A DNA stretch of 58,673 nt from Vicinamibacterales bacterium (GTDB lineage Bacteria > Acidobacteriota > Vicinamibacteria > Vicinamibacterales > UBA2999). Numbering within the stretch: position 1 is the first letter of the stretch; each line of letters opens with the position of its first letter. The DNA is taken from positions 1 through 58,673 of the forward strand of contig DASTDQ010000142.1 in NCBI GenBank assembly GCA_035710305.1. The letters are read 5' to 3'. Below are positions 974 to 38,823 of this stretch, one piece after another. The position numbers and the translations under genes are program-made. A model generated the notes under the pieces. The model saw only the letters and a program-made list of their open reading frames with translations. It ran no database searches and had not been told where the DNA came from.

Positions 974-987
974 AGGAGAACACAGTC

Positions 988-1857: not shown

Positions 1858-1889
1858 CCTGGCTGAGAGTCGCGACGGATTGCGAGTCT

Positions 1890-2372
1890 GTGAGAGTCCC
1901 GAGCCGGAGATCGCTGTCGTTCGAGGAGGCGCGCGCGTTTTCGAAGGACGTGCGGAAGCGTGGCGGGATCGTGGTGTTCACCAACGGAGCGTTCGACGTG
2001 TTGCACCCCGGGCACATTCACAGCCTGAAGGAGGCCCGAGGGCTGGGAGACGCGCTCGTCGTTGGCGTGAATTCCGACCGTTCCGTCCGCGCGAACAAGG
2101 GGCCCGACCGACCGATCAACCGCGCCGAGGCCCGAGCCACGGTGCTGCTGGGACTGCTCTTTGTGGACGCGGTGGTCGTGTTCGACGAAGACACTCCGCT
2201 CGATCTCATCGCTCGGATCGAGCCCGACGTTCTCGTCAAGGGTGCCGACTGGAGCGCTGACAACATCGTCGGACGCGACCTCGTGGAAGCACGGGGCGGC
2301 CGCGTGGTTCGCCTCGATCTGACTCCAGGTTTTTCAAGCACGAGCCTGATCCAGAGGACCAGAGGGAAGTAG
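1890..2372 (+). CDS. rfaE2: D-glycero-beta-D-manno-heptose-1-phosphate adenylyltransferase (RfaE domain II-like cytidylyltransferase)
   Basis: Motif VFTNGAFDVLHPGH (the nucleotidyltransferase HxGH signature). About 160 aa, GTG start. Confidence 0.8.
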   Translation: MRVPSRRSLSFEEARAFSKDVRKRGGIVVFTNGAFDVLHPGHIHSLKEARGLGDALVVGVNSDRSVRANKGPDRPINRAEARATVLLGLLFVDAVVVFDEDTPLDLIARIEPDVLVKGADWSADNIVGRDLVEARGGRVVRLDLTPGFSSTSLIQRTRGK

Positions 2373-2384
2373 GTCCGGGGCCAC

Positions 2385-5300
2385 ATGGCGACCACGACAC
2401 CCTCGCTGACACTGCGCTCGATCCTGGGCCGTGCCGTCTCGCAGGCCAGGCTCGACCAGGGCGCGCCGGTTCTCGCCGGCCTGACAGCCTCGGCAAAGGC
2501 TCTGGCCGCGGCGGGGCTGGCGCGGAGCCGCGGAGGAGTGACGCTGGTCGTCGTCCCAACGGAGGCCGACGTCGAGCGATTCATCGCCGACCTCCGCTTC
2601 TTCTACGCCGGCCTCGAGGCCGCTTCCGATGCGGCCCTTGACCACGCCATCCTGCCCCTGCCCGCCATCCAGGTCGATCCGTATCGGGGAATGACGCCAC
2701 ACTTCCGCGTCGCGGCGGGGCGGGCGCGCGCTCTGCACGCGGCGGCAGCCGGCACGGCACGGGTGATCGTCGCGTCCTCGGCCGCGTTGTTGCCACGCGT
2801 CAGTTCTCCCGCACGTCTGCTGGCCACGTCAGTCGAACTCCGCGTAGGCAGCGAGTGTGAGCCTCAGCGCCTGGCGGATCTGCTGATCGAGGGCGGATTC
2901 ACGAGAGAGGATCCCGTCGACGAACATGGCGCATTCGCCCTTCGCGGCGGCATCGTGGATGTCTTTCCGACAGCCGACGCCGAACCGGTGCGCATCGAGT
3001 TCGTCGGCGACATGGTCGAGACGCTGCGGCGATTCGATCCGTCGACGCAGCGATCGACTGGTGCGATCGATCTGGTCCAGATCGTTCCGGCGCGGGAGCG
3101 GTTCGACGACGACGAGCCGACGTCTGTGATGGAATTCCTCGCTTCCTCGCCGGCGGGCCTGAACCTGATCGTCTCGGAGTACGAGGAGGTTCGGCAGCAG
3201 GCGCTGAAGCTTCGCGAACAACTGCAGCGCAGCTACGAGGAGACGTCCGCACGAGGCCGCCCGGCGGCGGTTCCTCCGGCGCTTGCCTTCACCGATTGGG
3301 AGGATCTCGCGGCACGAACGGCAAAGGCTCTCCGCCTCGAAGAACTGACCATCGCAGACGATGCCGCAGCGCGCCACGTGTCGTGTCAGCCGGCGATCGA
3401 GTTTCGAGGTCGTATCGGAGACTGGGCCGCGGACATCAAGCGCGCCAGGGAGAGCGGTGCAACGGTTCTCGTCGTAGCTGACAGCCCCGGAAAGGCCGAA
3501 CGCAGCGCCGAGATTCTCCGCGACTACGACATCATCGCCGTGCCACTCGACCGGGCGGAGGAGGCACACGCCGGGGCCGTTCTGATCGCCATCGGAGCGC
3601 TGTCGAAGGGGTTTCGACTGGAGGACGCCGACCTCCAGATCTACTCGGAAGCAGATGTCTTCGAGGAAGAGAGGAGGATCACCGAGGGGCGGCGAAGCCT
3701 CTCGAAAACGTTTCTTTCAGACCTGCGCGACCTGAAGGTGGGCGATCTCGTCGTTCACGTCGATCATGGCATCGGAGAATTCGTCGGGCTCAAGCAGCTC
3801 GCGACGGGCAGTCGTTCGACGCCGGCAACGGGAGCAGACCTCCAGGAATTCCTCGAGCTCCGATATCACGGGGACGACAAGCTGTTTGTTCCCGTCGAGC
3901 GCCTTGACCTCATCCAGAAGTACACCGGTGGCTCCCGGCCCGCTCTGGATCGACTGGGCGGAACCACCTGGGAAAAGGCCAAGACGCGAGTCAAGAAGGC
4001 CATGCGGGACATGGCCGAAGAGCTCCTCAAGCTGTACGCGCAACGCAAGGCCATGCCGGGGCACGCCTTCGCCGCCGACACGCATTGGCAGGAGGAATTC
4101 GAAGGCGCATTTCCGTACGAACCCACGCCCGACCAGGCGACCGCCATCGCGGACGTCAAGCGCGACATGGAAACGGCAACGCCCATGGATCGTCTGTTGT
4201 GCGGCGATGTCGGCTACGGCAAGACCGAAGTGGCCATGCGTGCCGCCTTCAAAGCCGTGATGGATGGAAAGCAGGTCGCCTTCCTCGCACCGACGACGGT
4301 CCTGGCGTTTCAGCACCTGAAAACGCTGCGCGATCGATTTGCGGCGTTTCCCGTCACCATCGACATGGTCAGCCGGTTTCGGACCCGGCAGGAAATCAAA
4401 GAGGTCGTCGGGCGTGTCGCCGAAGGCAAGGTCGACATCATTGTCGGGACGCACCGGTTGTTGTCCAAGGACGTGCAATTCAAGGACCTCGGCCTTCTCG
4501 TTGTCGACGAGGAGCAGCGCTTTGGCGTCGTCCACAAGGAACGCATCAAGCAGATGCGCAAGCGCGTCGACGTGTTGACGATGACGGCCACGCCGATTCC
4601 GAGGACGTTGAACATGTCGCTCGTCGGCATCCGCGACATGTCGATCATCGAGACGCCGCCGAAGGACCGGCTGTCGATCCAGACGAACGTCGTGAAGTTC
4701 GACGCCGCCGTTATCGAGCGGGCGATTCGCAACGAGATCGCGCGGGGAGGCCAGGTCTACTTCGTCCACAACCGCGTCGAGTCGATTTTCTCGATTGGCA
4801 ACCTGGTGCAGCGGCTCGTGCCGGAAGCGCGAATCGCGATCGGTCACGGGCAGATGGGGGAAGAAGAACTGGAACGGGCCATGCTGACGTTCGTCGATCG
4901 ACGCTGCGACATCCTGCTGGCGACGACGATCGTCGAAAACGGGCTCGACATTCCGAACGCGAACACCATCATCATCAATCGCGCGGACCGGTACGGGCTC
5001 GCGCAGCTGTACCAACTTCGAGGGCGAGTCGGCCGATCGGATCGCGCCGCGTATGCATACCTCTTGATCCCCCCGCCGGAGTCGCTGTCTCCCGTCGCGC
5101 GCAAGCGGCTCGCGGCAATCAGGGAGTTCAGCGACCTCGGGAGCGGGTTCCGAGTCGCAGCGCTCGACCTGGAGATTCGCGGCGCCGGCAATCTTCTCGG
5201 GGGGGAGCAGAGCGGTCACATCGACGCGGTCGGCTTCGAGATGTACGTGAAGCTGCTCGAAGAGGCGATCCGTCAGCTTCGGGGCGAGGAGCTCGAGGAA

Positions 5301-5912
5301 GAGGCCCGGGCCACCGTCAACCTGCGCATCGACTTGAGGATCGACGACAGTTATATCCCCGATATGAACCAGCGGCTGATGGTCTATCGAAAGGTGGCAT
5401 CGGCCAGGACGGAACCCGAGGTGAATTCCTTGCTGGAGGAGCTCCGGGATCGCTACGGGGCCCCGCCCGAGTCAGTGCTCAACCTCGCCGAGTACGGACG
5501 GACCAGAATCATGGCGGACCGGCTCGAGGTCGATTCAATCGACCGGGAGGGCCGCATGATCGTCATTAGATTCAGGCCCAATGCCCGACTCGATGGACTG
5601 CATCTCGTAAAGGTCGTGAGCGGCTGGCCGGGCGCCACCCTGGTGCCTCCCGTGTCCGTCACGCTGGATCTCGAGGCTGCGCCCGAACCGTCCGCCGAGG
5701 CTCGCCGGGCGGGGCCGAAGAGGGGCGACACCAGTCGAGGTCGTAGTCATGCGGCGCAGGGCAGCTGGTGGACCGCCCGCGCGTTGGCTGGTGAAGTGAA
5801 AGCGGGGTTCAACAAGGCCGAAGTGCTGCGCGTGCCCGAGCGCAGCCCGAGGGCCGAAGACGGTTTGTTCTCGCGCCTCCTGTCGCTGCTTCAGGCGCTC
5901 GACGCCGGGTGA
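2385..5912 (+). CDS. mfd: Transcription-repair coupling factor Mfd
   Basis: 1175 aa. Has a UvrB-homology N-terminus, a CarD-like RNAP-interaction domain (DLKVGDLVVHVDHGIGEF), superfamily-2 helicase motifs (GDVGYGKTEVA, DEEQRFG) and a TRG motif region. Confidence 0.95.
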   Translation: MATTTPSLTLRSILGRAVSQARLDQGAPVLAGLTASAKALAAAGLARSRGGVTLVVVPTEADVERFIADLRFFYAGLEAASDAALDHAILPLPAIQVDPYRGMTPHFRVAAGRARALHAAAAGTARVIVASSAALLPRVSSPARLLATSVELRVGSECEPQRLADLLIEGGFTREDPVDEHGAFALRGGIVDVFPTADAEPVRIEFVGDMVETLRRFDPSTQRSTGAIDLVQIVPARERFDDDEPTSVMEFLASSPAGLNLIVSEYEEVRQQALKLREQLQRSYEETSARGRPAAVPPALAFTDWEDLAARTAKALRLEELTIADDAAARHVSCQPAIEFRGRIGDWAADIKRARESGATVLVVADSPGKAERSAEILRDYDIIAVPLDRAEEAHAGAVLIAIGALSKGFRLEDADLQIYSEADVFEEERRITEGRRSLSKTFLSDLRDLKVGDLVVHVDHGIGEFVGLKQLATGSRSTPATGADLQEFLELRYHGDDKLFVPVERLDLIQKYTGGSRPALDRLGGTTWEKAKTRVKKAMRDMAEELLKLYAQRKAMPGHAFAADTHWQEEFEGAFPYEPTPDQATAIADVKRDMETATPMDRLLCGDVGYGKTEVAMRAAFKAVMDGKQVAFLAPTTVLAFQHLKTLRDRFAAFPVTIDMVSRFRTRQEIKEVVGRVAEGKVDIIVGTHRLLSKDVQFKDLGLLVVDEEQRFGVVHKERIKQMRKRVDVLTMTATPIPRTLNMSLVGIRDMSIIETPPKDRLSIQTNVVKFDAAVIERAIRNEIARGGQVYFVHNRVESIFSIGNLVQRLVPEARIAIGHGQMGEEELERAMLTFVDRRCDILLATTIVENGLDIPNANTIIINRADRYGLAQLYQLRGRVGRSDRAAYAYLLIPPPESLSPVARKRLAAIREFSDLGSGFRVAALDLEIRGAGNLLGGEQSGHIDAVGFEMYVKLLEEAIRQLRGEELEEEARATVNLRIDLRIDDSYIPDMNQRLMVYRKVASARTEPEVNSLLEELRDRYGAPPESVLNLAEYGRTRIMADRLEVDSIDREGRMIVIRFRPNARLDGLHLVKVVSGWPGATLVPPVSVTLDLEAAPEPSAEARRAGPKRGDTSRGRSHAAQGSWWTARALAGEVKAGFNKAEVLRVPERSPRAEDGLFSRLLSLLQALDAG

Positions 5913-5962: not shown

Positions 5963-7039
5963 GTGATGTTCAAGCGAACTGTCGTCGCGATGGCAATGGC
6001 GGCATGTGCCGCGTCTGCAACGGTCGGCGCCGAAATCCTCGAGCAGGTACTTGTCAGAGTAAACGGCGAAATCATCACCAAGACAGAGTTCGAGGCTCGC
6101 CAGGTCGCCGCGCTTGGAAACCGGCCGGAACTGGCCGGCGCCGGGCCGTCGAGTCCCGAATTGCGGAAAGCAGTCGCCGAGCTCACCCCCGATCTGATCC
6201 TGTCCGCTGTCGACGATCTGCTCCTGGTCCAGCGGGGCCGGGAGTCGGGATATGCCCTCGGCGATCAACAGTTCACGCAGATTCTCGAGAACATCAAGAC
6301 GACAAACGACCTCCAGGACGACGCCAAGTTCCGGGAAGCGCTCCGGCAGGAAGGCCTGACGCTCGCCGACCTTCGACGCAACCTCGAGCGCCAGATGCTC
6401 ATCTCGCAGGTTCAGCGCGTCGAGATTCTCGACAAGATCAGCCTCACTGACGAAGAAGCGAGAGCGTATTACGAGTCGCACCTGAAGGAGTTCACGGCGC
6501 CTGCAGAGGTCACGCTGCGCGAGATCCTGTTCGAAGTCGCCAACACGAGCCGCGGTTTCAACGTGGCTGAAGACGACGCAATCCGGGCGCGCGCTGCGGA
6601 AGTCCGGAAACGCCTGATCGGCGGCGAGCCTTTTCCGCGTCTTGCGGGTGAGTACTCGGCGTCCGGATCGAAAGCGAACGGCGGTCTCGTCGGCCCCTTG
6701 AATGTCGAGGAGCTGTCCTCAAACCTCCGCGACCTGCTGGCCGGCATGCAGGTGGGTGATCTCACCGAACCGCTCCGGACGGCGCGCGGGTACCAGCTGA
6801 TCAAGCTCGAGTCTCGAACCGACGCGAGGGTGCGGTCCTTCGAGGCCGCGCGCGGTGATATCGGCAACAAGCTCGGCGAGCAGAAGCTGCGAGTCGAACG
6901 CGAAAAGTACTTGGATCGGTTGCGGGAGCAAGCCACGATCGTCTGGCGGAACGCGGAGCTGAAGAAGGCCTATGAGACCGCGCTCAGCCGCCGACAAGCC
7001 GCGAACACTCAGGCGGCTGCGGCCGCGCCGGCGAACTGA
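5963..7039 (+). CDS. SurA-like periplasmic chaperone / PpiC-type peptidyl-prolyl isomerase
   Basis: Signal peptide, SurA N-terminal-like region and one parvulin domain. The start could be GTG 5963 or ATG 5966. Confidence 0.8.
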   Translation: MMFKRTVVAMAMAACAASATVGAEILEQVLVRVNGEIITKTEFEARQVAALGNRPELAGAGPSSPELRKAVAELTPDLILSAVDDLLLVQRGRESGYALGDQQFTQILENIKTTNDLQDDAKFREALRQEGLTLADLRRNLERQMLISQVQRVEILDKISLTDEEARAYYESHLKEFTAPAEVTLREILFEVANTSRGFNVAEDDAIRARAAEVRKRLIGGEPFPRLAGEYSASGSKANGGLVGPLNVEELSSNLRDLLAGMQVGDLTEPLRTARGYQLIKLESRTDARVRSFEAARGDIGNKLGEQKLRVEREKYLDRLREQATIVWRNAELKKAYETALSRRQAANTQAAAAAPAN

Positions 7040-7057
7040 GGTCGGCCGAGACCGTCG

Positions 7058-7600
7058 ATGAGCCAGAAGTCGACCCAGTCTGTGACGGAGATCGGTCCCT
7101 GGCGCGACGACGGGGAGAACTGGTTCGCATTGTGGATTCGGTCGCGGCACGAACAGGTTGTGCGCGAGCAGCTCGAACAGAAGCGAATCGAGACGTTCCT
7201 GCCCACCGTCACTCGTTGGAGCCGGTGGAAGGATCGCAAGAAAAAGATCGACTGGCCCCTGTTCCCGGGGTACTGCTTCGCGCGGTTCGATCCCCGCGAC
7301 CGATTGCCGGTGCTGAAGTGCACTGGCGTCGTCAACATTGTGTCGTTCGAAGGCGAACCGGCACCAATTCCGCAGCTGGAGATCGAAGGCATACGACGGC
7401 TCGTGCAGAGCGATCTGGCGTACGATCCGTGCCCCATGATTCGGGAGGGCATGATGGTCGAAGTCGTTCACGGTCCCTTGACCGGCGTCGTGGGCCGGCT
7501 CGTCCGAAAGAACGACAAAGCGCGGCTGGTGCTCTCTGTCGATCTCATCGGTCAGGCGGTGAGCGTCGAAGTTGATGCCGCCGACGTCCGGCCGTACTGA
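7058..7600 (+). CDS. NusG-family transcription antiterminator paralog (RfaH/UpxY-like)
   Basis: NGN domain (WFALWIRSRHEQ...PLFPGYCFARF) plus a C-terminal KOW motif (GMMVEVVHGPLTGVVGRLV). Not in a secE-nusG-rplK context. Confidence 0.8.
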   Translation: MSQKSTQSVTEIGPWRDDGENWFALWIRSRHEQVVREQLEQKRIETFLPTVTRWSRWKDRKKKIDWPLFPGYCFARFDPRDRLPVLKCTGVVNIVSFEGEPAPIPQLEIEGIRRLVQSDLAYDPCPMIREGMMVEVVHGPLTGVVGRLVRKNDKARLVLSVDLIGQAVSVEVDAADVRPY

Positions 7601-7606
7601 CAGCTC

Positions 7607-8653
7607 GTGAAGATCGGCTCCATCGAATTCCCATCGCCGCTGGTCGTGGCACCAATGGCCGGCATGACAGACACGGCTTTCCGCCGCCTCGTCAAGAGGC
7701 AGGGCGGCTGCGGTCTGGTGGTCACGGAGATGGTGTCGTCGGAGGGCCTGGTGCGGGGAATCGACCGCACGCTCGAGTACGCGGAATACACCGAGGAAGA
7801 GCGTCCTGTCGCCCTCCAGATTTTTGGCGGGAATCCTCACACGATGGCTGAAGCCGCCCGCATCGTCGAAGGCATGGGTGCCGATGTCGTCGACATCAAC
7901 ATGGGGTGCCCGGTAAAGAAGATTGCCAAGCACAATGCGGGCTGCAGCCTGATGCGGGAACCCGAACACGCCGCGCGAATCGTGTCGGCGATGACAACGG
8001 CGGTGAGCATACCCGTCACCGTAAAGATGCGTGCGGGATGGAGCGACGACGAGCGCAACGCGCCGACACTGGCCAGGATGGTTCAGGACGCCGGCGCTGC
8101 AGCCGTGACGATTCACGGGCGGACGGCCGAGCAGTCATACAGCGGCCTGGCTGACTGGGACCTGGTCAGCCGTGTCGCCGCCGACTTGAAGATTCCCGTG
8201 CTGGGAAGCGGCGATTGCCTGGAGCCCGAGCAGATTGTGTCCCGACTGCAGGCGGGGGTCGCCGGAGTGCTCGTCGGACGCGGCGTGCTTCGTAACCCCT
8301 GGATTCTTGCGCAGTCGTCCGACATCAGAGCCGGACGCGATCCGCGGGCGGTCACGATGGAAGACCGCGGCCGGTTTCTGCTCGATTACATCGATCTGCT
8401 GATCGACCAGCGAGAGAACGAGGCCAGAGGGTTCCGTCACACGGCCCCGGGCCCGCTGCCGGACGCGGCTCCTGCGTCGGGACGCGAGCGCTGGGTCATC
8501 AACAAGATTCGCGCGTTGTGTGCGTGGTACTCGAAGGGGCTCGATGCCGGCTCGCATCTCCGCGTGCGAGTCAACAGCGTCGATCGGGTGGCCGAGCTGC
8601 GCAGGGCTATCGAGGAATACTTCCTGGCGAACACATCGGTGGCGCCGGCCTAG
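7607..8653 (+). CDS. dus: tRNA-dihydrouridine synthase
   Basis: N-terminus PLVVAPMAGMTDTAFR and the TIM-barrel Dus signature DINMGCP..K. GTG start. Confidence 0.9.
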   Translation: MKIGSIEFPSPLVVAPMAGMTDTAFRRLVKRQGGCGLVVTEMVSSEGLVRGIDRTLEYAEYTEEERPVALQIFGGNPHTMAEAARIVEGMGADVVDINMGCPVKKIAKHNAGCSLMREPEHAARIVSAMTTAVSIPVTVKMRAGWSDDERNAPTLARMVQDAGAAAVTIHGRTAEQSYSGLADWDLVSRVAADLKIPVLGSGDCLEPEQIVSRLQAGVAGVLVGRGVLRNPWILAQSSDIRAGRDPRAVTMEDRGRFLLDYIDLLIDQRENEARGFRHTAPGPLPDAAPASGRERWVINKIRALCAWYSKGLDAGSHLRVRVNSVDRVAELRRAIEEYFLANTSVAPA

Positions 8654-8666
8654 GAACACGCGGCGA

Positions 8667-9245
8667 ATGGATTCCGACGTCTCACGGCAGCTGCGCCAGA
8701 TCGCCGAAGGTCTCCGGGCGATCAGCGAAGGGTCTTATGCCGCGCAGGTGGAACGGGCACTCGACATTCTCGAGACCGCGTTTCGTGCCGGCGGGACCCT
8801 GCTGGTCTTTGGCAACGGCGGATCTGCTGCCGACGCCGAGCACCTATGCGCGGAATTGGTCGGTCGCTTCTCGGCCGACCGCCGCCCGTTGCCGGCGATC
8901 GCGTTGACGACCAATCAGGCGTTCCTGACGGCGTGGAGCAACGACCGGCAATTCGATGACGTCTTCGCCCGTCAAATCGAGGGCGTTGGACGACCCGGCG
9001 ACGTGGCGTGGGGCATTTCGACGAGCGGTAATTCCCCGAACGTCGTCAACGGCCTCCGCCGGGCCCGCGAGCTGGGGCTGAGGACGCTGGGACTGTCGGG
9101 AGCCACCGGCGGGCCCATGGCCGAGTGGTGCGATGCCCTCATGGCGGTTCCACTCGACCAGACGCCGCGGATTCAGGAAGCGCACCTCGTCACATACCAC
9201 ACGATTTGCGGCGAGCTCGAGCGCCGGCTGTTCACCCGGGGCTGA
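8667..9245 (+). CDS. gmhA: Phosphoheptose isomerase (SIS domain)
   Basis: Motifs FGNGGSAADAEHLCAELVGRF, GISTSGNSPNV and RIQEAH closely parallel E. coli GmhA. I chose the internal ATG at 8667 because the longer ORF from 8520 overlaps the dus 3' end. Confidence 0.9.
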   Translation: MDSDVSRQLRQIAEGLRAISEGSYAAQVERALDILETAFRAGGTLLVFGNGGSAADAEHLCAELVGRFSADRRPLPAIALTTNQAFLTAWSNDRQFDDVFARQIEGVGRPGDVAWGISTSGNSPNVVNGLRRARELGLRTLGLSGATGGPMAEWCDALMAVPLDQTPRIQEAHLVTYHTICGELERRLFTRG

Positions 9246-9258
9246 GCGTGTCGGGCGG

Positions 9259-10860
9259 CTAGTGGGCCCTGCGGCGAGCCAGCGAGCGGACGAGCGAGAC
9301 CATCTGGCCGCGGTCGCTTGCTTGAGCGACCGCTTCGCGCAGTGCGACGTGGCGTCGCGCGACGGCCCGCGCGAGGGATTCGTCAACAGAACGCATCCCG
9401 GGTCCGCCGTCCTGTTGCATGCGCGCGAGCCTGTCGAAGTCGCCTGCCTCCAGCGCCCCGCACACCGCGCTGGTCGCCAGCACGACGTCCTGAACCAGCG
9501 TCCGTCCTCCGCCGATGCGACGAAGGCTGCGATAGCCGATTGCGGCTCTGAACGAGGCGGCCATTGCGCGGCGAACATGAACGTCGGAACCGGACAGCAT
9601 GCGCAACGCATCCACCGTGGTCGATGCGACGACGCCGACGATGACCAGCCGCCCGCCCGCCGCCGCCAGGACGGCTGACTGAAGCGCCTGTTCGGACTGG
9701 AGCCCGGTCACGAGAAGGATATCGGGAGCTTCCTGTGAGGCGCGGCGGATGGCGGCAGCGAAGTCTTTCTCGCTTCCGCTGATCGTTCGCCGGCTCACGA
9801 ACACGCCTGCGATGTCCTCGAGAGAGCGGCTGCGGCGCTGAAGCGAGATCAGGTACCCGCCGCGGTCGCGACTGCTCCAATCAGCCACGGCTGCCGCCAG
9901 CATCTCGACATCGGTCTCGTTCCCCGCCGCCACGACCACGAGACCCTGCGCCTCGCAGGCCAGGCGGATCTGACGCGGGATGTGCTTGTGCAAGAGGCGC
10001 AGCGACGTTGTCGGTCTGAGCTGAACGACGAGCCCCGTGCCGTCCAGGTCGCTGAAGACGCGGCAGCTGACGTAGCCGAACTCCTCGTCTTCGCGGACCC
10101 ACTCACCGTCCGGGCGCGGCTGCCATCGGCCGTCGCCGCCACGAGAGAAGATGTTTGCGACCTCGTCCACCACCGACGCATCGACGATCTCGTCGCTGAC
10201 GGGCTGAATGCGATCGTCGATTCGGGCCGCAGCATTCGAACCGGCGCGGAGAAACATCATGCTCGCGCCGAGATCGGCTGCCTGGCGAATCCACGCGGCA
10301 AGGTCCCGCGGCGGTTCAGGGCGGGACCGCGACTGTCGAACAGGTTCCGGGGTGTAAGACGGAGCGGGTCGCTCTATGTGCCTGACAGGTTCCGGCGGCG
10401 CGAACGGCCTTGCGTCGAAGCGCACCTCAGGCGCCGGTGCGACTGCGATCGGAGGCGCGGCGACAGCTTCGGGTTCGGCAGGCACGAAGACCGGCGGATG
10501 TTCGACGACCGGAATCGCTGGTGCGGGTTCCAGAACAGAAGCCGCGTTGTCAGGAAGCGAGACGATCAACTCGATCGAAAAATCGTCCCCGACGCGCTCG
10601 GCTCGGGCAGTGAGCGGATGGGGAAAAGACTCCGAATGCACCGGTTCGCTGACCACGCCGTTGGCACTCAGTTCCTGACGACCGGCACCAGACAGAATCT
10701 GTTCCGCCAGCGCTTCGACAGCGTTGATAGAGAGGACCGCAGAGGCGACGTCCTGGCGGCGCGCACCGGCGAGTACGTGCGGGCGTTCCCCCGCTCTCAT
10801 CACGAGGCGTTCACCACCTGCGCGTTCGAGTGCTGCGCAGAGCGACGGCATCAGGCTCAT
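9259..10860 (-). CDS. PilT/GspE-family ATPase homolog with all catalytic motifs degenerate (predicted pseudo-ATPase). Two PilT-type N-terminal domains are separated by a Pro/Ala-rich linker.
   Basis: The C-terminal 250 aa align colinearly with PilT (IGGGRTLVQDVVLATSAV, GMRSVDESLARAV). The Walker A GPTGSGKST position reads AAGNETDVE. Walker B/catalytic DIILVGEMRD reads DILLVTGLQS. The His box TGHLVFGTLHT reads GGRLVIVGVVAS. Confidence 0.8.
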   Translation of the reverse strand: MSLMPSLCAALERAGGERLVMRAGERPHVLAGARRQDVASAVLSINAVEALAEQILSGAGRQELSANGVVSEPVHSESFPHPLTARAERVGDDFSIELIVSLPDNAASVLEPAPAIPVVEHPPVFVPAEPEAVAAPPIAVAPAPEVRFDARPFAPPEPVRHIERPAPSYTPEPVRQSRSRPEPPRDLAAWIRQAADLGASMMFLRAGSNAAARIDDRIQPVSDEIVDASVVDEVANIFSRGGDGRWQPRPDGEWVREDEEFGYVSCRVFSDLDGTGLVVQLRPTTSLRLLHKHIPRQIRLACEAQGLVVVAAGNETDVEMLAAAVADWSSRDRGGYLISLQRRSRSLEDIAGVFVSRRTISGSEKDFAAAIRRASQEAPDILLVTGLQSEQALQSAVLAAAGGRLVIVGVVASTTVDALRMLSGSDVHVRRAMAASFRAAIGYRSLRRIGGGRTLVQDVVLATSAVCGALEAGDFDRLARMQQDGGPGMRSVDESLARAVARRHVALREAVAQASDRGQMVSLVRSLARRRAH

Positions 10861-11333
10861 AGGTCAGCGTCCTGCAGAGTAAGCGTGTCTTCGAATTGCA
10901 GCGCCGCCCGAAAAACCGGAGTCGGCGCGACCGCATGCATCGACGAACGTATGACCGTTGCGCGGAGAACCTTGCGCACCCCGCCGTAGCGAAGGAAGAC
11001 GTCCACGGTTCGACCCGGACACAGTCTCTGACTCGTTTCGGCCAGAAGACCGGTAGACGATAGATTCACGAGCCGCATCGGAAAACCGGCGACGGCCAGC
11101 CGTATCTCGACTTTGAACTGATGTGGTTCGCGCCGTGGGGCGCCGCGTCGTTCCTTGCGCTGAGGCGGAGGTTCCGGAACCGGATCCGGCTTTGCCTCTG
11201 CGGGGGACTGAGCTTTGGCCGCGGCAGGGCTCTGCCAGGACGCCTCCAGACCGGCGAAAAGGTCGTCCAGAGACGCCTTCTCGGGAAGCTTGACGACCAT
11301 CTCGTCGTCGGAATCAGAGCCCGGATCGCTCAT
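10857..11333 (-). CDS. PilZ domain protein (c-di-GMP receptor motifs intact) with acidic/Pro-rich N-terminus
   Basis: RxxxR (RGAPR) and (D/N)xSxxG (NLSSTG) motifs are present. Its stop overlaps the start of the downstream pseudo-PilT gene by 4 nt. Confidence 0.8.
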   Translation of the reverse strand: MSDPGSDSDDEMVVKLPEKASLDDLFAGLEASWQSPAAAKAQSPAEAKPDPVPEPPPQRKERRGAPRREPHQFKVEIRLAVAGFPMRLVNLSSTGLLAETSQRLCPGRTVDVFLRYGGVRKVLRATVIRSSMHAVAPTPVFRAALQFEDTLTLQDADL

Positions 11334-11345
11334 GACCGCACAAAG

Positions 11346-11361
11346 TGCAACCTGGCTGCCG
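11346..11361 (-). promoter_or_regulatory. Candidate sigma54 promoter (minus strand reads CGGCAGCCAGGTTGCA)
   Basis: GG-N10-GC spacing with TTGCA at -12. It lies only about 13 nt upstream of the annotated PilZ ATG. This implies a near-leaderless transcript or use of the internal ATG at 11300. Confidence 0.4.
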
Positions 11362-11521
11362 GCCCCTCGAGACGTTTCTTGCGCAGGGCGATGTCAGAGT
11401 TGCATTAGAATTCACAGTAATTCCCTTGAGTAACGACCTATCATAGGCGAACGATGACTGAGTCGTCCTCCCAATCCTTGAAGTTCCGGATGACTCGCGG
11501 ACGAGAGGGGAGAGGCCGTCA

Positions 11522-11887
11522 ATGGCGAAGATCCTAGTCGTCGAAGACGACGATGCGACGCGGGCCGGCTACCGGGAACTCCTGAGCCGGGCAGGGCATG
11601 AGGTTGTCGCCACGGCTACCTACCAGGAAGGGCGGCACGCCGTCGCTACCGAGAGCCCAGACCTCGTGATCGCGGACTTGCGGCTGGGTGGATTCAACGG
11701 ACTCCAGTTATTGCTGCTCAGCCCGCAGCCGATCCCGACGATCATCGTGACCGGGTTTCATGATCAGGTTCTCGAGGCTGAGGCCAGGCGCGCGGGGGCC
11801 GATTACGTCGTCAAACCTGTCTCCCCCTCCAACCTCATGACCCTGGTCCGCGAAAGGCTCGAGAGTCAGGCTGCATCTGGACGCTGA
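11522..11887 (+). CDS. Stand-alone response-regulator receiver (CheY-like)
   Basis: 121 aa. Acidic pocket VEDDD, phospho-acceptor Asp in VIADLRL, conserved T (IIVTG) and K (VVKP). Confidence 0.9.
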   Translation: MAKILVVEDDDATRAGYRELLSRAGHEVVATATYQEGRHAVATESPDLVIADLRLGGFNGLQLLLLSPQPIPTIIVTGFHDQVLEAEARRAGADYVVKPVSPSNLMTLVRERLESQAASGR

Positions 11888-12063: not shown

Positions 12064-12079
12064 TGGCGACTGGCTTGCA
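12064..12079 (+). promoter_or_regulatory. sigma54 (-24/-12) promoter TGGCGACTGGCTTGCA
   Basis: Matches TGGCACG-N4-TTGCW in geometry, with GG at positions 2-3 and TTGCA at positions 12-16. The GC dinucleotide lies 30 nt upstream of the ATG at 12109. Identical at 13/16 positions to the site at 14296. Confidence 0.7.
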
Positions 12080-12108: not shown

Positions 12109-13815
12109 ATGTCGAGCATCAAGAGTCAGTTACCGGTCGCACAGGAACCGACCCTCTTCGAGGGAGCGGTCCGTGACCGCTCGTGGGAATGGCTGCTCGA
12201 ACTGCGCCGCCGGCTCAAGGTCGAACTGCTGTTGGTGGATGGACGCTGTTCGGTACTGCTGCCCGCGCGGGATCAGGCGGCCCGCCTTCAGGGTCTGCTC
12301 GAACAAACTGAACCGGTCCTGGTGTCTGCCATCAACGCGACGCTGCGCAGCAGGACAGCCCACGTCGTGGAGCTTGGCGGGCTTCAGGCAGTCTGCCTGG
12401 CGATATCACGTGATCGGGGAGACGCCGGGGCACTACTCGTCGGCAGGACCGTTCCGCCGGGGCAGGACCCACGGGCCTCCCGCGATCAGCTCCAACTGGT
12501 TACCTCGTGGTTGGCCACGGCCGTCGAGGCGCACCTTCTCAGCCCGCCGTCGCTTCTTTCGAGTGGCTTGAGTCGAGTCGCTCCCCTGGCCCAGGTGTTC
12601 GGCCAGTGCGCGGAACACGAATCCGATCGCGAGCTCGTTCGACTGTTTGGCGAGGCGGTCGCCGTCTGGCACGACATCGAAGTTTGCGGGTACGTGGAGA
12701 CGTCCAATGGCGGCTTCGCCAGAGATGTGACACTGCCCGGCGCGAACAAGGGCGAAAGGCCCCTGTCGATTTCCGCCGAGGAGTTGCCCGAGGCGACCGA
12801 ACTCACGCGACTTCCTCACGGGCATCTCGACCGATTCGGACTCCCGGTGAGTTGCGACGTTTACGTGAGCCGGTTGGCCCGGGCTGCGGAGCGATCGTGG
12901 CTCCTCGTCTTCATCGGAGCCATTGACGACTACGATCTTCAGCGCCTCGGGGCGTATCTGGCGTTGCTGGAGTTAGCCCTTGCCTTGTCGACGTCGACGA
13001 TGACCACCCGCGTGGTGAACACGATCGGCAGCAGGCTCAGCGACGTTCAGCAGACGCCGGAGATGCGCACCAGGAATGCACTAGAGGAGCTCCGCCGAAC
13101 GCTCGGCGCGTCTTCGGCCGGTCTCAAGATCGAGTCGCCAGACGGGGCGCCCTTGTTCGACGCGCTGAGCCCCGACCTTGCCGACACGTCTCGCGCGGAC
13201 CCAGGTGCGTCGAGACTAGTGCTCGTCAAACGGTCCGAACAGCATTACACTACGACCGTTTCGCTCGGTCGCTATGAGAGTCGGCAGTTCACTCCACGAG
13301 ACTACGCCGTGGCGAGCGCTGCGGCGACCGTATTCGGGCTCTGGGTTCCTGCGACGTTGAGCACCGCTGCGGGTCGGCGCGAACGCCGGGCCCTGCCGCG
13401 CGGGTTTCAAGAAGTAATTGAACGGTCGGCCTGCGAGGCAATCGAACGAGGTGTGCCCGTCGCAGTCGTTGTTCTGCTGATTCGAGATGCCATATCGCTG
13501 CCCGGGTCCACCCAGCGTTGGGTGGCGGGCATTCGGGGTCAAATGAGGGCGTCGGACGTGGCCGGGATGCTGACAGAAGGAGAAATAGGACTCCTGTTGC
13601 ACGACATCGCCAACGAGCAGGCCAAGGCCATCGCCGAACGCCTCAGGACGGTGGTGAGCGGTGCGCCCGGACGGGAGGCGATTCTGATCGGTGTGGCCAG
13701 TTGGACGCCAGGCCAGGACCCGGCCGATGGTATTGTTCGCAGGGCCCGTGCAGATGCACTCGCCGACGGTCGGCGTGCTCAAGTGTCCGTTTCACCTCGC
13801 GGAGTGAACAGCTGA
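12109..13815 (+). CDS. Multi-sensor protein ending in a degenerate GGDEF domain that keeps its RxxD I-site (predicted c-di-GMP receptor, not a cyclase)
   Basis: The C-terminal fold-level pattern is GGDEF-like. The A-site reads TEGEI instead of GG(D/E)EF. RASD sits exactly 5 residues upstream, as in canonical I-sites. The N-terminal about 400 aa looks like tandem GAF/PocR-like sensor modules (weak). Confidence 0.65.
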   Translation: MSSIKSQLPVAQEPTLFEGAVRDRSWEWLLELRRRLKVELLLVDGRCSVLLPARDQAARLQGLLEQTEPVLVSAINATLRSRTAHVVELGGLQAVCLAISRDRGDAGALLVGRTVPPGQDPRASRDQLQLVTSWLATAVEAHLLSPPSLLSSGLSRVAPLAQVFGQCAEHESDRELVRLFGEAVAVWHDIEVCGYVETSNGGFARDVTLPGANKGERPLSISAEELPEATELTRLPHGHLDRFGLPVSCDVYVSRLARAAERSWLLVFIGAIDDYDLQRLGAYLALLELALALSTSTMTTRVVNTIGSRLSDVQQTPEMRTRNALEELRRTLGASSAGLKIESPDGAPLFDALSPDLADTSRADPGASRLVLVKRSEQHYTTTVSLGRYESRQFTPRDYAVASAAATVFGLWVPATLSTAAGRRERRALPRGFQEVIERSACEAIERGVPVAVVVLLIRDAISLPGSTQRWVAGIRGQMRASDVAGMLTEGEIGLLLHDIANEQAKAIAERLRTVVSGAPGREAILIGVASWTPGQDPADGIVRRARADALADGRRAQVSVSPRGVNS

Positions 13816-14132
13816 TGGCGTTGGGGGATCGACGTTCTCGCCTGCGCCTTGAAGTCGTCGGCGCGTTGTGGGCCACGTTGGAGCTGACAGAGCCCGCCCG
13901 GGTGGTGAATATCAGCCGGGATGGGGCGCTGATCACGTCACCCGTCCCAATGACACCAGAGTCGGTCCAGCCGCTTCATCTGAAGCTGGAGGGACGAGAG
14001 GTTACCGTGGATGCACGCGTTCGCCACATCCGTCGTGTGTCCGGACCGGACGAGCCCATCCGGTACCTCGTTGGAGTCGAGTTTCTTACAGTCCCTCCCG
14101 CACTCGCCCGCGCCACGGAATGGCCGTCGTGA
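13815..14132 (+). CDS. Single-domain PilZ protein
   Basis: RxxxR (RSRLR) and NxSxxG (NISRDG) motifs. The ATG overlaps the upstream stop (TGATG). The longer ORF from 13518 is an out-of-frame overlap with the upstream gene. Confidence 0.8.
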   Translation: MALGDRRSRLRLEVVGALWATLELTEPARVVNISRDGALITSPVPMTPESVQPLHLKLEGREVTVDARVRHIRRVSGPDEPIRYLVGVEFLTVPPALARATEWPS

Positions 14133-14295: not shown

Positions 14296-14311
14296 TGGCG
14301 ACTCACTTGCA
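14296..14311 (+). promoter_or_regulatory. sigma54 (-24/-12) promoter TGGCGACTCACTTGCA
   Basis: Exact GG-N10-GC geometry with TTGCA. Lies about 65 nt upstream of the PilZ-EBP operon start. It is preceded by an AT-rich tract (14241-14262) and a palindrome (14273-14288). Confidence 0.7.
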
Positions 14312-14377
14312 GCCTCGGCAGACTTCGGGAAACCCGTAGGACATGAACGAGTCCGCGCGGTGTGCGCGAGGAGACCG

Positions 14378-14689
14378 ATGGAGGAACGGCGGCGGACCCC
14401 ACGGCAGCAGGTCGGTGAGGAATTCGCAAATCTGCCAGGGAACATGAGCGTCCGGGTTCTGGACATCAGCACCGTCGGCGTGCTGATTCAGTCCCCCCGC
14501 CTGCTCAACCCGGGATCACGCGGAAGTCTGCGCTTCACGCTTGCCGGAGCACCCTTTGCGGCAGACATTCAAGTTCGGCGCGTGTCCTCGGCGTCCGACA
14601 ACGGATCCGGGTACCGCATTGGTGCGACATTCGTGGGAATGACCATGGATCACCGACAGCTGATTGAACGGTTCATGAACAATGATTGA
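14378..14689 (+). CDS. Single-domain PilZ protein
   Basis: RxxxR (RRTPR) and DxSxxG (DISTVG) motifs. The ATG at 14378 follows a GAGGAG Shine-Dalgarno sequence. An alternative GTG lies at 14360. The 3' end overlaps the EBP start by 8 nt. Confidence 0.8.
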   Translation: MEERRRTPRQQVGEEFANLPGNMSVRVLDISTVGVLIQSPRLLNPGSRGSLRFTLAGAPFAADIQVRRVSSASDNGSGYRIGATFVGMTMDHRQLIERFMNND

Positions 14690-15809
14690 TGGTGTAGCTG
14701 AAAGCAGCACTCGAGTCGGCGCGATTGGCCCGATTGGGGCGATTCGGCCCCGATCTCACGTCCAGCTCACTGGCCGCAGCGCCGAGGTTGTCGCACTCGA
14801 ACAAGAGATCGACCGGGTCGCCCGCTCCGACGCCAAGGTTCTGATCACGGGCGAAAGCGGTGTCGGCAAGGAGATCGTCGCACGCGCGATTCACTCGCGA
14901 GGGCCTCGGTCCGGACACGTGTTTGCGCCGGTCAACTGCGCCGGTCTTCCCGAAACGCTGCTTGAATCCGAACTGTTCGGGCACGTCAAGGGCAGCTTCA
15001 CGGGGGCCTACCGCGACAAGCCTGGCAAGTTGGAAACGGCTCACATGGGTACGATCTTCCTCGACGAAGTCGGGGAGATGACGCTCCGGATGCAGGGCTT
15101 GCTTCTGCGCTTCCTGGAGACGGGTGAGCTTCAGAAGGTTGGAGCCGATGGGAGCGGCCGCATCGTCAACGTTCGCGTCATCGCGGCGACCAACCGTGAT
15201 CTGCGCGACATGATCAAGCAGGGAACCTTCAGAGAGGACCTGTTCTATCGGCTCAACGTCATCCACATCGTTGTGCCACCGCTTCGGGACCGTCGCGAGG
15301 ATATCCCGGTACTCGCGAACCAGTTCCTGTCCCACTTCACGACTGCCGGGCGATCCACGATCACGGGGATTTCCTCGGATGCGATGAAGGCCCTGATCGA
15401 GTACTCGTGGCCGGGTAATGTGCGCGAACTCGAGAACGTCATCGAGCGCCTCGTCGTCACCGTCAGCGGTCCGACGATCGAGACCGAGCATCTCTCATCG
15501 GAGATCAGAGCCTACGATGCCGTAATGCTCCGGCCCAAGCGGGAGCGACGGCGCACCGTGGCCGACGATCTGTACAAGCGCATGCTCGAGCAACACGAAT
15601 CGTTCTGGACGGCCGTGTACCCGCTGTTCATGGACCGCGAGATTACGCGAGCGAACTTGCGCGAGGTCGTCCGCCGCGGCCTCGAGGAAGCGCGGGGCAA
15701 CTACAAGATCGTGGCCCGCCTCTTCAACATGGAGGCGCGCGATTACAAGCGGTTCCTGAACTTCCTCCGGAAACACGACTGCCAGATCCCCTTCAAGGAA
15801 TACCGCTGA
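14682..15809 (+). CDS. sigma54-dependent enhancer-binding protein lacking any receiver/sensor domain (AAA+ core plus C-terminal Fis-like HTH)
   Basis: Walker A GESGVGKE, sigma54-contact loop GSFTGA (variant of GAFTGA), Walker B FLDEVGEM, R-finger region FREDLFYRLN. C-terminus GNYKIVARLFNMEARDYKRFLNFLRKH. Only about 30 aa precede the AAA+ core. Confidence 0.9.
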   Translation: MIDGVAESSTRVGAIGPIGAIRPRSHVQLTGRSAEVVALEQEIDRVARSDAKVLITGESGVGKEIVARAIHSRGPRSGHVFAPVNCAGLPETLLESELFGHVKGSFTGAYRDKPGKLETAHMGTIFLDEVGEMTLRMQGLLLRFLETGELQKVGADGSGRIVNVRVIAATNRDLRDMIKQGTFREDLFYRLNVIHIVVPPLRDRREDIPVLANQFLSHFTTAGRSTITGISSDAMKALIEYSWPGNVRELENVIERLVVTVSGPTIETEHLSSEIRAYDAVMLRPKRERRRTVADDLYKRMLEQHESFWTAVYPLFMDREITRANLREVVRRGLEEARGNYKIVARLFNMEARDYKRFLNFLRKHDCQIPFKEYR

Positions 15810-15908: not shown

Positions 15909-15924
15909 AGGCACGGTTGTTGCC
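15909..15924 (+). promoter_or_regulatory. sigma54 (-24/-12) promoter AGGCACGGTTGTTGCC
   Basis: GGCACG-N4-TTGC is a near-perfect match to the consensus. Lies about 80 nt upstream of the GTG start at 16004, which has a GAGGAG Shine-Dalgarno sequence. Confidence 0.7.
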
Positions 15925-17904: not shown

Positions 17905-19098
17905 ATGTCGACACTTTCTCTACCCCGAATGCCGAAAAACCTGCCACTGCTGCTCGGCGAGAGTCCAGCCATCAGCTCTCTGCGACGTGAAATCGAGGCG
18001 GCGGCCAGGACCGACGCGAAAGTCCTCGTTCTCGGCGAAACGGGATCGGGCAAGGAAGTCGTCGCGCGACTGATTCACGAGCAGAGTGGACGTTCGTCGC
18101 GCGCGTTTGTCGCTGTCAACTGCAGCGGCATCCCTGAGACCCTCCTCGAATCCGAGCTGTTCGGTCACACACGAGGCAGCTTCACGGGCGCTTACCGCGA
18201 CAAGCCAGGGCTGGTGCGGCAAGCCGACAGAGGCACGCTGTTCCTCGACGAGCTCGGAGAGATGAGTCTCAGGATGCAGGCAGTCCTGCTGAGATTCGCC
18301 GAGACTGGCGAGATCCAGACGATCGGCGTCGACGGTGTGACGGGTCGTTCCGACGTGCGCCTCATCACGGCGACGAACCGAAACCTTCGCGAGCGGATCG
18401 ATGCTGGCGTGTTCCGCGAGGACCTGTACTTCAGGCTCAACATCATTCAGATTCATGTCCCGCCCCTGCGCGAACGAACCGAGGACGTGATGCTGCTGCT
18501 GCGTCATTACCTGCGCAGAGCCAGCGAGACGCATCGCCTCGCGTATCCGGAGTTGACGCTGGACGCCGAGCAGGTGCTCGCCTCGTATGCCTGGCCAGGC
18601 AACGTTCGCGAACTGAAGAACCTCGCGGAGCGCTTGGTCGTGCGCGAGTGGGATCGCGCCATTGGCGCCAACGATCTTCCTGCCGAGATCCGTGGAGGGC
18701 GCGACACTGTCTCGACCTCGCCGAGCTCCAGCGTGACGTTCAATCAGGACAGCGTGCCTACCGCGCGACGGCTCGAGCGAGGCTCCGGAACAGCCGATCG
18801 CTTGTGGGAACGTCTGATCGCGGGCGAGAGCTTCTGGACCGTTGTACACCAGCCGTTCAAAGCGCACGAACTCACGCGGGATGACCTCGCCGCTTTGATT
18901 CATCGCGGGCTCGAGCACACGAGAGGAAGCTATCGTGCTCTGCTCGGCGTGTTCGGTCTCCCGCCGACGGACTACAAGCGCTTCCACGCGTTCTTGTATC
19001 AGCAGAACTGCAACTTGCCTGTTGGACCGTATCGCACCGCGAGAGCAACACTGCGCCGGCAAGATCGGCCCGCGTCGGTGTACACACCGGCCTGCTGA
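17905..19098 (+). CDS. sigma54-dependent enhancer-binding protein, receiver-less paralog of 14682-15809
   Basis: GETGSGKE, GSFTGAYRDKPG (identical loop context to the paralog), FLDELGEM. Shares the C-terminal ESFWT...DYKRF...N motif block. GGAG lies 10 nt before the ATG. Confidence 0.9.
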   Translation: MSTLSLPRMPKNLPLLLGESPAISSLRREIEAAARTDAKVLVLGETGSGKEVVARLIHEQSGRSSRAFVAVNCSGIPETLLESELFGHTRGSFTGAYRDKPGLVRQADRGTLFLDELGEMSLRMQAVLLRFAETGEIQTIGVDGVTGRSDVRLITATNRNLRERIDAGVFREDLYFRLNIIQIHVPPLRERTEDVMLLLRHYLRRASETHRLAYPELTLDAEQVLASYAWPGNVRELKNLAERLVVREWDRAIGANDLPAEIRGGRDTVSTSPSSSVTFNQDSVPTARRLERGSGTADRLWERLIAGESFWTVVHQPFKAHELTRDDLAALIHRGLEHTRGSYRALLGVFGLPPTDYKRFHAFLYQQNCNLPVGPYRTARATLRRQDRPASVYTPAC

Positions 19099-38785: not shown

Positions 38786-38823
38786 CGACGCTCGGATCTT
38801 AGATCGACCGCGGGGGCGGCGCT

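Follow-up and report, generated by a model that had tools for sequence, protein, structure and literature searches.

PilT-family ATPases are textbook motors. In the DNA analysed here, a stretch of 58,673 nucleotides (nt) from a Vicinamibacterales bacterium (Acidobacteriota; contig DASTDQ010000142.1), referred to as a whole as the window, two overlapping genes on the minus strand encode a PilT-family protein of 533 residues in which the catalytic motifs are replaced, called pseudo-PilT in this text, and a 158-residue PilZ-domain protein, PilZ-1, in which the motifs for binding cyclic di-GMP (c-di-GMP) are intact. Both open reading frames (ORFs) and their 4-nt overlap had been proposed in a sequence-only reading of this DNA, and they are found as described, the shared letters being ATGA (Table 1). 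Features that go beyond that reading are a conserved sigma54-type promoter, a c-di-GMP/sigma54 island around the two genes, and a sister family of pseudo-PilT in which Walker A is intact. The evidence throughout is computational.

The earlier claim of homology to PilT across the whole ATPase core holds in profile, structure-based and fold searches. Pseudo-PilT aligns through residues 187-517 with positions 2-341 of the 343 positions of the NCBIfam profile TIGR01420 (E=8e-25) and through residues 189-526 with Aquifex PilT (2ewv, E=7.8e-17), and it can be aligned with the solved structures of both PilT and PilU. A full-length model was built on a 45-sequence alignment (predicted template modelling score, pTM, 0.46), and the best PDB folds found with it in Foldseek are PilU, PilT and PilT4, with E-values from 1e-13 to 1e-9 for PilU/PilT. 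The TIGR01420 score is 87.8 bits, below the family cut-off of 319.1, and Pfam T2SSE (PF00437) gives no match for the 533-residue protein even at E<=1, where only noise is returned (ADH_zinc_N, HTH_53). Since Pfam is blank for this protein, its homology is drawn from the NCBIfam, PDB and fold searches.

The motifs of pseudo-PilT were read from the HMMER alignment to Aquifex PilT, and the replacements noted earlier by eye, namely Val at the Walker A Lys position, VTGLQS at the Walker B/catalytic Glu block and GGRLVIVGVVAS at the His box, are all recovered in it, together with a replaced Asp box (Table 1). Throughout the clade of motif-less relatives described below, the Walker A Lys position holds Lys in 0 of 35 scored members, any one of the three conserved Walker A glycine positions holds Gly in at most 2 of these 35, and both conserved His of the His box stand at 0%. 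The PilT-specific C-terminal AIRNLIRE helix is not kept either, AVCGALEAGDF in pseudo-PilT being aligned with AIRNLIRENKL of Aquifex PilT, and the arginines R93, R95 and R110 of Aquifex PilT correspond to Y, S and Q, with a retention in the clade of only 23-31%. That pseudo-PilT is without every nucleotide-handling residue, the arginines of its PilT N-domain included, and is not a motor is a conclusion well supported by its sequence. Judged by Walker A, by the Asp box and Walker B/Glu, by the His box, by the AIRNLIRE helix and by the score cut-offs, five sequence features in all, it likewise lies outside the PilT/PilU family in the functional sense.

Two PilT-type N-terminal domains separated by a Pro/Ala-rich linker had also been described, and both are confirmed. 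The extra domain, N1, when modelled by itself reaches a predicted local distance difference test (pLDDT) score of 92.3 and a pTM of 0.84; its 29 best PDB matches in Foldseek are all N-domains of PilT, PilU or PilT4 (template modelling score, TM, 0.78-0.87; root-mean-square deviation 1.6-2.7 A), followed by DotB. With diverse profiles, hhalign matches N1 over 89 columns to the N-domain of genuine PilTs (E=4e-8, probability 94.9%), and the domain at the canonical position, N2, matches them at E=9e-22. The comparison of N1 with N2 gives E=2e-4 with diverse profiles and E=0.07, which is not significant, with the shallow clade alignment, and in the model the order of secondary-structure elements is common to both. 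The linker between them is predicted to be disordered, and linkers among the relatives reach about 700 residues, some of them consisting of charged repeats. The longest linkers sampled, those of P0137 and P0157, both from the motif-less clade, are charged repeats and probably coiled-coil.

Selection on this gene was estimated by the Nei-Gojobori method over 21 orthologues as the ratio of nonsynonymous to synonymous substitution rates (dN/dS), which is 0.11-0.13 for the whole gene, 0.05-0.07 for N1, 0.07-0.16 for N2, 0.07-0.10 for the C-terminal domain (CTD) and 0.20-0.30 for the linker. The three blocks that once held the Asp box, Walker B and the His box give 0.035-0.07, and within the close clade the positions of the degenerate motifs are conserved too. 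Two loci of metagenome-assembled genomes (MAGs), L011 and L012, were left out of these estimates; in them, frame breaks split the gene (about 10001-11780), with 164 and 314 codons before the stop and two tblastn segments, and assembly indels, not real pseudogenes, are the probable explanation of these breaks. Pseudo-PilT is thus functional and maintained by purifying selection. The low dN/dS across the motif-less clade also means that the loss is not strain-specific decay, an outcome that the sequence-only reading had named as contrary to it: the motif loss is clade-wide, with a dN/dS of about 0.1. The claim of an inactive scaffold rather than a motor stands with it, the nucleotide-handling residues being gone throughout a clade under purifying selection.

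How widely such proteins occur had been raised as a question as well. A word-indexed search finds more than 120 full-length homologues at 54-99% identity, and a precomputed T2SSE domain is present in 0 of 120. Pseudo-PilT is found in 13 GTDB species genomes, all of them Vicinamibacterales/Acidobacteriota MAGs; the genome-assigned members all come from uncultured MAGs, and the divergent lineages from unbinned metagenome contigs. An exhaustive profile search of 1.84 billion representatives returns 205 proteins at E<=1e-30. In the motif table of the top matches, about 40 representatives (clusters at 50% identity) score at least 234 bits and are without all four motifs, and the next group, at no more than 227 bits and with 550-1236 residues, has the same N1-linker-N2-CTD plan and keeps GPRxSGK[ST] and the acidic Walker B residues. 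In a neighbour-joining tree rooted on PilT, 37 motif-less sequences form one exclusive clade, so the motif loss happened once, and the Walker-A-intact proteins form the sister group. The clade includes members at about 35-45% identity. Among 73 columns that are conserved at 85% or more in 31 genuine PilTs, 23 are retained by the motif-less clade: a structural framework of Gly, Pro and hydrophobic residues, R189, the Walker B PD and the GMxxxDxxL block at the C-terminus. In the sister group 43 are retained, with the N2 arginines (R93, R95, R110) among them. The Asp-box position varies between motif-less subclades (LQRRSRS, LRPAGSP, IEPPNGL), and this difference in pocket residues argues against a new common ligand site.

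The Walker-A-intact sister family (e.g. P0163, P0170 and P0183) shows the origin of pseudo-PilT. Both groups have N1 followed by a variable linker, and the sister family shares with the motif-less clade a half-degenerate His box (GRLVIxGxxA), an Asp box without D, P or E, and an orphan position away from pilus genes, none of which was found near sister-family members in the 3 loci sampled. It differs in that GPRxSGK[ST], E172, QRE and the N2 arginines are kept, in that Pfam T2SSE recognises it, and in that no PilZ neighbour is present in these 3 loci. The family (P0163-P0269; loci L020, L101 and L102) is large and apparently undescribed. The linker of its member P0173 gives weak coiled-coil-type Pfam matches. 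Partial erosion of the P-loop is seen in several members (GSDKS, GSDLS, GPAERT), and the family seems, from these sequences, prone to catalysis loss.

The second gene of the pair, PilZ-1, scores 26.6 bits against Pfam PF07238 (cut-off 22.5, residues 61-153), and its orthologue in the divergent locus L016 scores 24.2 bits. Its c-di-GMP motifs, which had been called intact, are RRGAPR and NLSSTG, and R62, R63, R67, N90, S92 and G95 are invariant in 14 PilZ-1 orthologues down to 36% identity (alignment A5); PilZ-1 is accordingly predicted to bind c-di-GMP. In front of the PilZ domain lies an acidic N-terminal peptide ending in VVKLPEKASLDDLFAGLEAS (...LDDLIAGLE...) and followed by a variable Pro-rich spacer. 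The core of this peptide, L-x-[LI]-D-x-L-[IFL]-A-x-[LF]-[ED], is kept throughout the lineages, with L016, L019 and L103, at 36-43% identity, among them; the other two short PilZ proteins encoded in the island described below do not have the peptide. This clade-specific peptide is a candidate docking motif.

The linkage of the two genes is close and widely kept. The stop and start codons share the ATGA sequence, a junction of translational coupling that is seen in all 13 genome loci as well as in the window, and no divergent lineage has a spacing above 7 nt. When a local hidden Markov model of PilZ-1 orthologues was run on the ORFs of 100 loci, a PilZ-1 orthologue was found to end at or within 7 nt of the pseudo-PilT start codon in all 52 loci having upstream DNA, the divergent lineages L016, L019, L021 and L053 being among them, while such an orthologue was found in 0 of 42 ordinary PilT loci of the same scan. 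Nor does any of 3 Walker-A-intact relatives have a PilZ neighbour. The most basal member sampled (P0158, locus L103) also has a PilZ-1 orthologue, with a 4-nt overlap. The receiver, p568, SIS and Dus genes, which are neighbours in Vicinamibacterales, are unlinked in the divergent lineages, so PilZ is the sole conserved partner. These counts support PilZ pairing as a conserved, ancestral trait of the motif-less clade and not of ordinary PilT loci.

Upstream of PilZ-1, the sigma54-type element CGGCAGCCAGGTTGCA holds the sole exact match to GGCAS-N5-TTGCW on both strands of the window, and no sigma70-like promoter was found in 9100-11600. The element is kept as CGGCA[GA]-N5-TTGC[TA] in 27 of 31 distinct orthologous intergenic regions, and equivalent sigma54-type sites are present in four of five divergent lineages (L019, L021, L053 and L103): TGGCAC-GCCTC-TCGCA in L019 and L021 and TGGCAT-GCCCC-TCGCA in L053, each 14 nt before the PilZ ATG, and GGCAT-N5-TTGCT in L103, 19 nt before it. 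The short distance from promoter to ATG implies a near-leaderless transcript, with a predicted leader of few nucleotides. Transcription of PilZ-1 and pseudo-PilT would be sigma54-dependent, and three sigma54 activators are encoded within 10 kb of the operon. Two more blocks of the intergenic region between PilZ-1 and the receiver gene are conserved in orthologous loci, GATRATAGGYCGATTA and GGAAYAT..GAAKTTTAGTGCAAT; the latter lies about 50-75 nt upstream of the PilZ ATG, reads GTGAATTCTAATGCAAC in the window, does not recur elsewhere in the window, and may be an activator or integration host factor (IHF) site. Rfam gives no family in the window, hence no c-di-GMP riboswitch.

Table 1. Positions of the two genes, their domains and motifs, and the surrounding promoter sites and signalling genes in the 58,673-nt window.
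Feature	Position	Strand	Description
Pseudo-PilT gene	9259..10860	-	533 aa; order N1, disordered linker, N2, CTD
CTD of pseudo-PilT	9262..9984	-	residues 293-533; RecA-like ATPase-fold domain without catalytic motifs
Former His box	9622..9657	-	GGRLVIVGVVAS where PilT has TGHLVFGTLHTN
Former Walker B/catalytic Glu	9694..9726	-	PDILLVTGLQS for PDVIFVGEMRD; Glu replaced by Gly; PD alone retained
Former Asp box	9823..9849	-	ISLQRRSRS where PilT has ITIEDPIEY
Former Walker A	9901..9927	-	AGNETDVEM where PilT has GPTGSGKST; V at the Lys position
N2 domain	9985..10302	-	residues 187-292; PilT N-domain at canonical position, without the conserved arginines
Pro/Ala-rich linker	10303..10551	-	residues 104-186; predicted disordered, pLDDT below 50; variable in length and sequence
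N1 domain	10552..10860	-	residues 1-103; extra PilT-type N-terminal domain; best-conserved part of the protein
ATGA stop/start overlap, PilZ-1/pseudo-PilT	10857..10860	-	translational coupling
PilZ-1 gene	10857..11333	-	158 aa; canonical-motif PilZ
[D/N]xSxxG c-di-GMP-binding motif	11049..11066	-	NLSSTG, residues 90-95
RRxxxR c-di-GMP-binding motif	11133..11150	-	RRGAPR, residues 62-67
Acidic N-terminal peptide of PilZ-1	11238..11333	-	residues 1-32
Sigma54-type -24/-12 element	11346..11361	-	CGGCAGCCAGGTTGCA; 16-mer, GG-N10-GC geometry; 3' end 12 nt before PilZ-1 ATG
Intergenic region, PilZ-1 to receiver	11362-11521		contains two further conserved blocks
Conserved block GTGAATTCTAATGCAAC	11399-11415
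Single-domain response regulator	11522..11887	+	divergent to PilZ-1; Pfam Response_reg E=3e-18
Sigma54-type site	12064-12079	+	30 nt upstream of p568/PilZ-2 start
p568	12109-13815	+	conserved 568-aa protein; C-terminal degenerate GGDEF
I-site and GGDEF region of p568	13546-13587	+	RxxD (RASD) intact at canonical spacing; TEGEI replaces GGDEF
p568 stop/PilZ-2 start overlap	13813-13817	+	TGATG
Sigma54-type site	14296-14311	+	49 nt upstream of PilZ-3/EBP1 start
PilZ-3	14360-14689	+	RRRTPR, DISTVG
EBP1	14682-15809	+	sigma54 activator
Sigma54-type site	15909-15924	+	80 nt upstream of GAF-GGDEF start
Second receiver-less sigma54 activator	17905-19098
Second GGDEF cyclase	25286-26476	+
GAF-GAF-SpoIIE (PP2C) phosphatase	27008-28813	+
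SpoIIE-domain protein	37619-39427	-
parA, parB, CTP-transferase-like gene, mfd	170-5912		opening of the window

The context of the pair is signalling, not pilus biogenesis. As the sequence-only reading had it, the genes lie away from pilus genes: no pilus, type II secretion system or flagellar gene is present among the ORFs scanned across the window, and no pilus gene adjoins pseudo-PilT in related loci whose called genes were Pfam-annotated or scanned. Between about 9 and 29 kb there are genes for four PilZ proteins and, with GGDEF domains, for two proteins of the active type and one that is degenerate; a CheY-like receiver, a hybrid kinase, a sigma factor, three sigma54 activators and a GAF-PP2C phosphatase are encoded there as well. 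Three further strong sigma54-type sites stand on the plus strand in front of p568/PilZ-2, PilZ-3/EBP1 and the GAF-GGDEF gene (Table 1), two of them reading TGGCGACT-N3-CTTGCA and the third AGGCACGGTTGTTGCC, and the site of p568/PilZ-2 is shared by the window and the 9 related loci compared with it (10 of 10 sequences). With the PilZ-1 site included, four sigma54-type sites are placed upstream of operons, against a mean of 0.15 in shuffled sequences, and 0 of 300 shuffles reach four; on this pattern of sites the island looks like a local sigma54 regulon.

Among the neighbours, the single-domain response regulator is found at 13 of 13 genome loci and in none of the divergent lineages, being linked only within the Vicinamibacterales group. 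The same restricted linkage holds for p568, which starts 776 nt from the PilZ-1 start codon, is coupled to PilZ-2 by a stop/start overlap, has no EAL domain, and gives no Pfam match and no sequence relatives in the PDB; its intact I-site and replaced GGDEF motif suggest a c-di-GMP receptor, not a cyclase. PilZ-3 overlaps by 8 nt (ATGATTGA) the gene of the sigma54 activator EBP1, which has no receiver domain and no Pfam-detectable helix-turn-helix; this gene pair also occurs in L014, and PilZ-3 may act in trans on this enhancer-binding protein. A second receiver-less activator and, beyond the core of the island, further signalling genes are listed in Table 1. In two divergent lineages, HD_5 (HD-GYP-type) genes adjoin the PilZ/pseudo-PilT pair, and in L053 the pair is followed immediately by an NtrC-type sigma54 activator (genes at 756-1613(-) in L021 and at 9051-9893(+) and 6765-8165(+) in L053); a connection with c-di-GMP turnover and sigma54 thus recurs without shared synteny. 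The window opens with parA, parB and mfd, a related contig (L014) has gidB beside parA, and the signalling island probably lies near the chromosomal origin region. PADLOC gives no defence-system match for PilZ-1, pseudo-PilT or p568.

That pseudo-PilT is non-motor and PilZ-coupled is well supported. The wider proposal, that the two-gene, sigma54-transcribed operon is a c-di-GMP effector module with a non-motor PilT-family protein as its output part, has a slightly better than even chance of being right. PilZ-1 would be the sensor, with its canonical motifs and its clade-specific N-terminal peptide on a flexible spacer, and pseudo-PilT would be the non-enzymatic output part, composed of the N-domain/RecA-like fold and a second, tethered N-domain. 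The two proteins would form a complex in which c-di-GMP on PilZ takes the place that ATP has in real PilT rings, and the c-di-GMP switch would act on the conformation, on oligomeric packing or on how available the tethered N1 is, so that the signal is handed on by protein-protein contact alone. Pseudo-PilT may itself form a ring. In PilT-type rings the N-domain packs on the neighbouring CTD, and because of this packing the tethered spare N-domain would be a plausible effector arm. As for the target, a PilT/PilB-type hexamer or its platform leads, and a pilus-independent partner in the sigma54/c-di-GMP network is about equally possible. In its boldest form, the proposal is that this lineage swapped ATP for c-di-GMP, the pocket being erased once and PilZ recruited at the same node, with the ring or N1 then switched in trans as a sigma54-induced hub or motor-jamming device; this version is tentative and rather doubtful.

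Several observations weigh against the effector-module proposal. The CTD of the pseudo-PilT model has only moderate confidence (pLDDT 60-70). The -12 element is missing in four orthologous loci and in L016, and a leader as short as the one implied is not usual with a sigma54 promoter. N1 and the linker are also present in the sister group, so both are older than the PilZ link and not PilZ-specific. Within the motif-less clade, the SAPFA subgroup (Walker A region SAPFAEDVA) is without the orthologous PilZ, which makes the partnership not absolutely obligatory: its member P0145, on a JGI contig, has no adjacent PilZ and is followed by HATPase_c and RR-PAS-GGDEF-EAL genes, and its member P0149 has a different PilZ of 170 residues with an extra N-terminal domain (L104, 5349-5861, minus strand), divergently oriented and 140 nt upstream. 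Finally, what adjacency and coupling show is co-expression, with equal stoichiometry implied; they are no proof of contact.

Some of the same evidence could be read differently. The pair may act specifically on type IV pilus motors as their brake or decoy, with a dead ring or an N1 mimic that would occupy the PilC/PilM platform or enter PilT/PilB hexamers once PilZ is loaded with c-di-GMP, stalling pilus dynamics in the manner of YcgR-type PilZ brakes, which turn the c-di-GMP level into a protein-protein block on the flagellar motor. Its nearest relatives in sequence and fold are indeed PilT, PilU and PilT4, the ring-scaffold residues and the GMxxxDxxL block are retained, the spare tethered N-domain would be a plausible competitor for the packing on neighbouring CTDs, and pilT paralogues often lie away from pilus clusters. 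Regulation of PilB by PilZ proteins is known in other bacteria (PMC11656802). The lack of any pilus gene in 58.7 kb, or beside the gene in the related loci listed or scanned, and the unconserved AIRNLIRE helix tell against a pilus target. Homology is the one tie between the pair and a pilus machine, and the brake or decoy is possible, if unlikely. Mere co-regulation, in which PilZ-1 and pseudo-PilT are made together for different targets and form no complex, would fit the coupling of other small PilZ genes of the island to unrelated partners (p568/PilZ-2 and PilZ-3/EBP1) and the SAPFA subgroup without the orthologous PilZ. It is made improbable by an overlap or a spacing of at most 7 nt kept across lineages with no other shared synteny, by a PilZ link that arises, like the loss of the motifs, at the clade's base and is missing from the sister group, and by a clade-specific PilZ-1 peptide that the other short PilZ proteins of the island do not have.

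The two remaining alternatives concern pseudo-PilT itself. A nucleoside triphosphatase or nucleotide binder working through a non-canonical site is very improbable: the P-loop has turned into acidic and aliphatic residues with no Walker A Lys and scarcely any Gly, the N2 arginines of real PilTs and of the sister group are lost, and the pocket residues are unlike between subclades, so that no alternative site is under common selection, even though the RecA-like fold is kept and neither the Walker B PD nor R358 (the R in QRE of PilT) varies. For want of a commonly conserved pocket, this reading was rejected. A decaying pseudogene or annotation artefact without function, to which only the frame breaks in the two MAG loci point, has a negligible chance; more than 120 homologues have an intact ORF, the clade is old, and the dN/dS values, those of the former motif blocks among them, refute it. 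What these comparisons favour is the c-di-GMP effector module, in which the pair would rate, from its sequence features, as a PilZ adaptor with an ATPase-fold partner, the partner here being a predicted pseudoenzyme.

Degenerate, RecA-like non-catalytic scaffolds of nucleoside triphosphatase descent are known in secretion and motility machines, as in the N-domain of BcsE and in the archaellum protein ArlH/FlaH. These proteins and YcgR share a concept with the pair, but none is homologous to it and none is a stand-alone PilZ with a full-length motif-less PilT. With PilT and PilU themselves, pseudo-PilT shares the two-domain core of a PAS-like N-domain and a RecA-like CTD, alignable end to end; it differs from them in the missing catalytic motifs and N2 arginines, in the extra N-domain on a disordered linker, and in being paired with PilZ rather than placed beside pilus genes.

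In the PilB-PilZ(-FimX) systems of Xanthomonas and Pseudomonas, PilZ is not a c-di-GMP binder, and its docking site is the PilB N1 domain (PMC11656802). The sequence-only reading had drawn an analogy to the Xanthomonas system, and it holds in so far as PilZ does contact PilB there and a small PilZ-fold protein is joined to a secretion-superfamily ATPase homologue in a c-di-GMP-related pathway; beyond this it is loose. The PilZ of that system is without binding motifs, whereas PilZ-1 is canonical; its partner is an active extension motor with FimX as the sensor, whereas the partner here would be a dead PilT-type protein; and the N1 of PilB is of the GspE-N type, whereas pseudo-PilT has no GspE-N/MshEN-type domain and its N1 is a PilT-type N-domain. 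FimX is a degenerate GGDEF-EAL sensor; the degenerate GGDEF protein near the pair, p568, is without EAL and is coupled to PilZ-2. On the features of PilZ and its partner the pair would not be a PilB-PilZ-FimX system. Another point of comparison, and a precedent for the proposed module, is PilB of Myxococcus xanthus, an active motor with its own c-di-GMP-binding motifs. Signalling persists in a variant of it deficient in hydrolysis, and the signalling conformer is proposed to be the form free of nucleotide (PMC5544727). Signalling independent of hydrolysis would be common to both, the motif-less clade being then a permanently nucleotide-free version, but M. xanthus PilB is still active and carries its own motifs, while here catalysis appears to be gone and the sensor would be a separate PilZ. 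In the literature that could be searched, no description of a PilZ paired with an inactive PilT was found, and nothing was found on pili in Vicinamibacteria; databases leave pseudo-PilT unnamed or label it 'pilus retraction ATPase PilT' (JGI data).

A clade that is under selection, without nucleotide chemistry and with the fold retained, points to a second, non-motor use of the PilT chassis. The coincidence of motif loss with the gain of a canonical PilZ leads to a testable hypothesis, namely that c-di-GMP is wired in trans onto a hexameric-ATPase scaffold. If this is true, the pair would represent a new class of c-di-GMP effector made from a retired secretion-motor chassis, and would give the signalling state without hydrolysis that has been proposed for Myxococcus PilB a natural counterpart. 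With the 'PilT' labels of the JGI data, inferences of twitching motility from metagenomes of soil Acidobacteria count a non-motor. The island, which couples three PilZ genes to three different partners, offers a compact system for the intersection of c-di-GMP and sigma54 in a poorly studied phylum.

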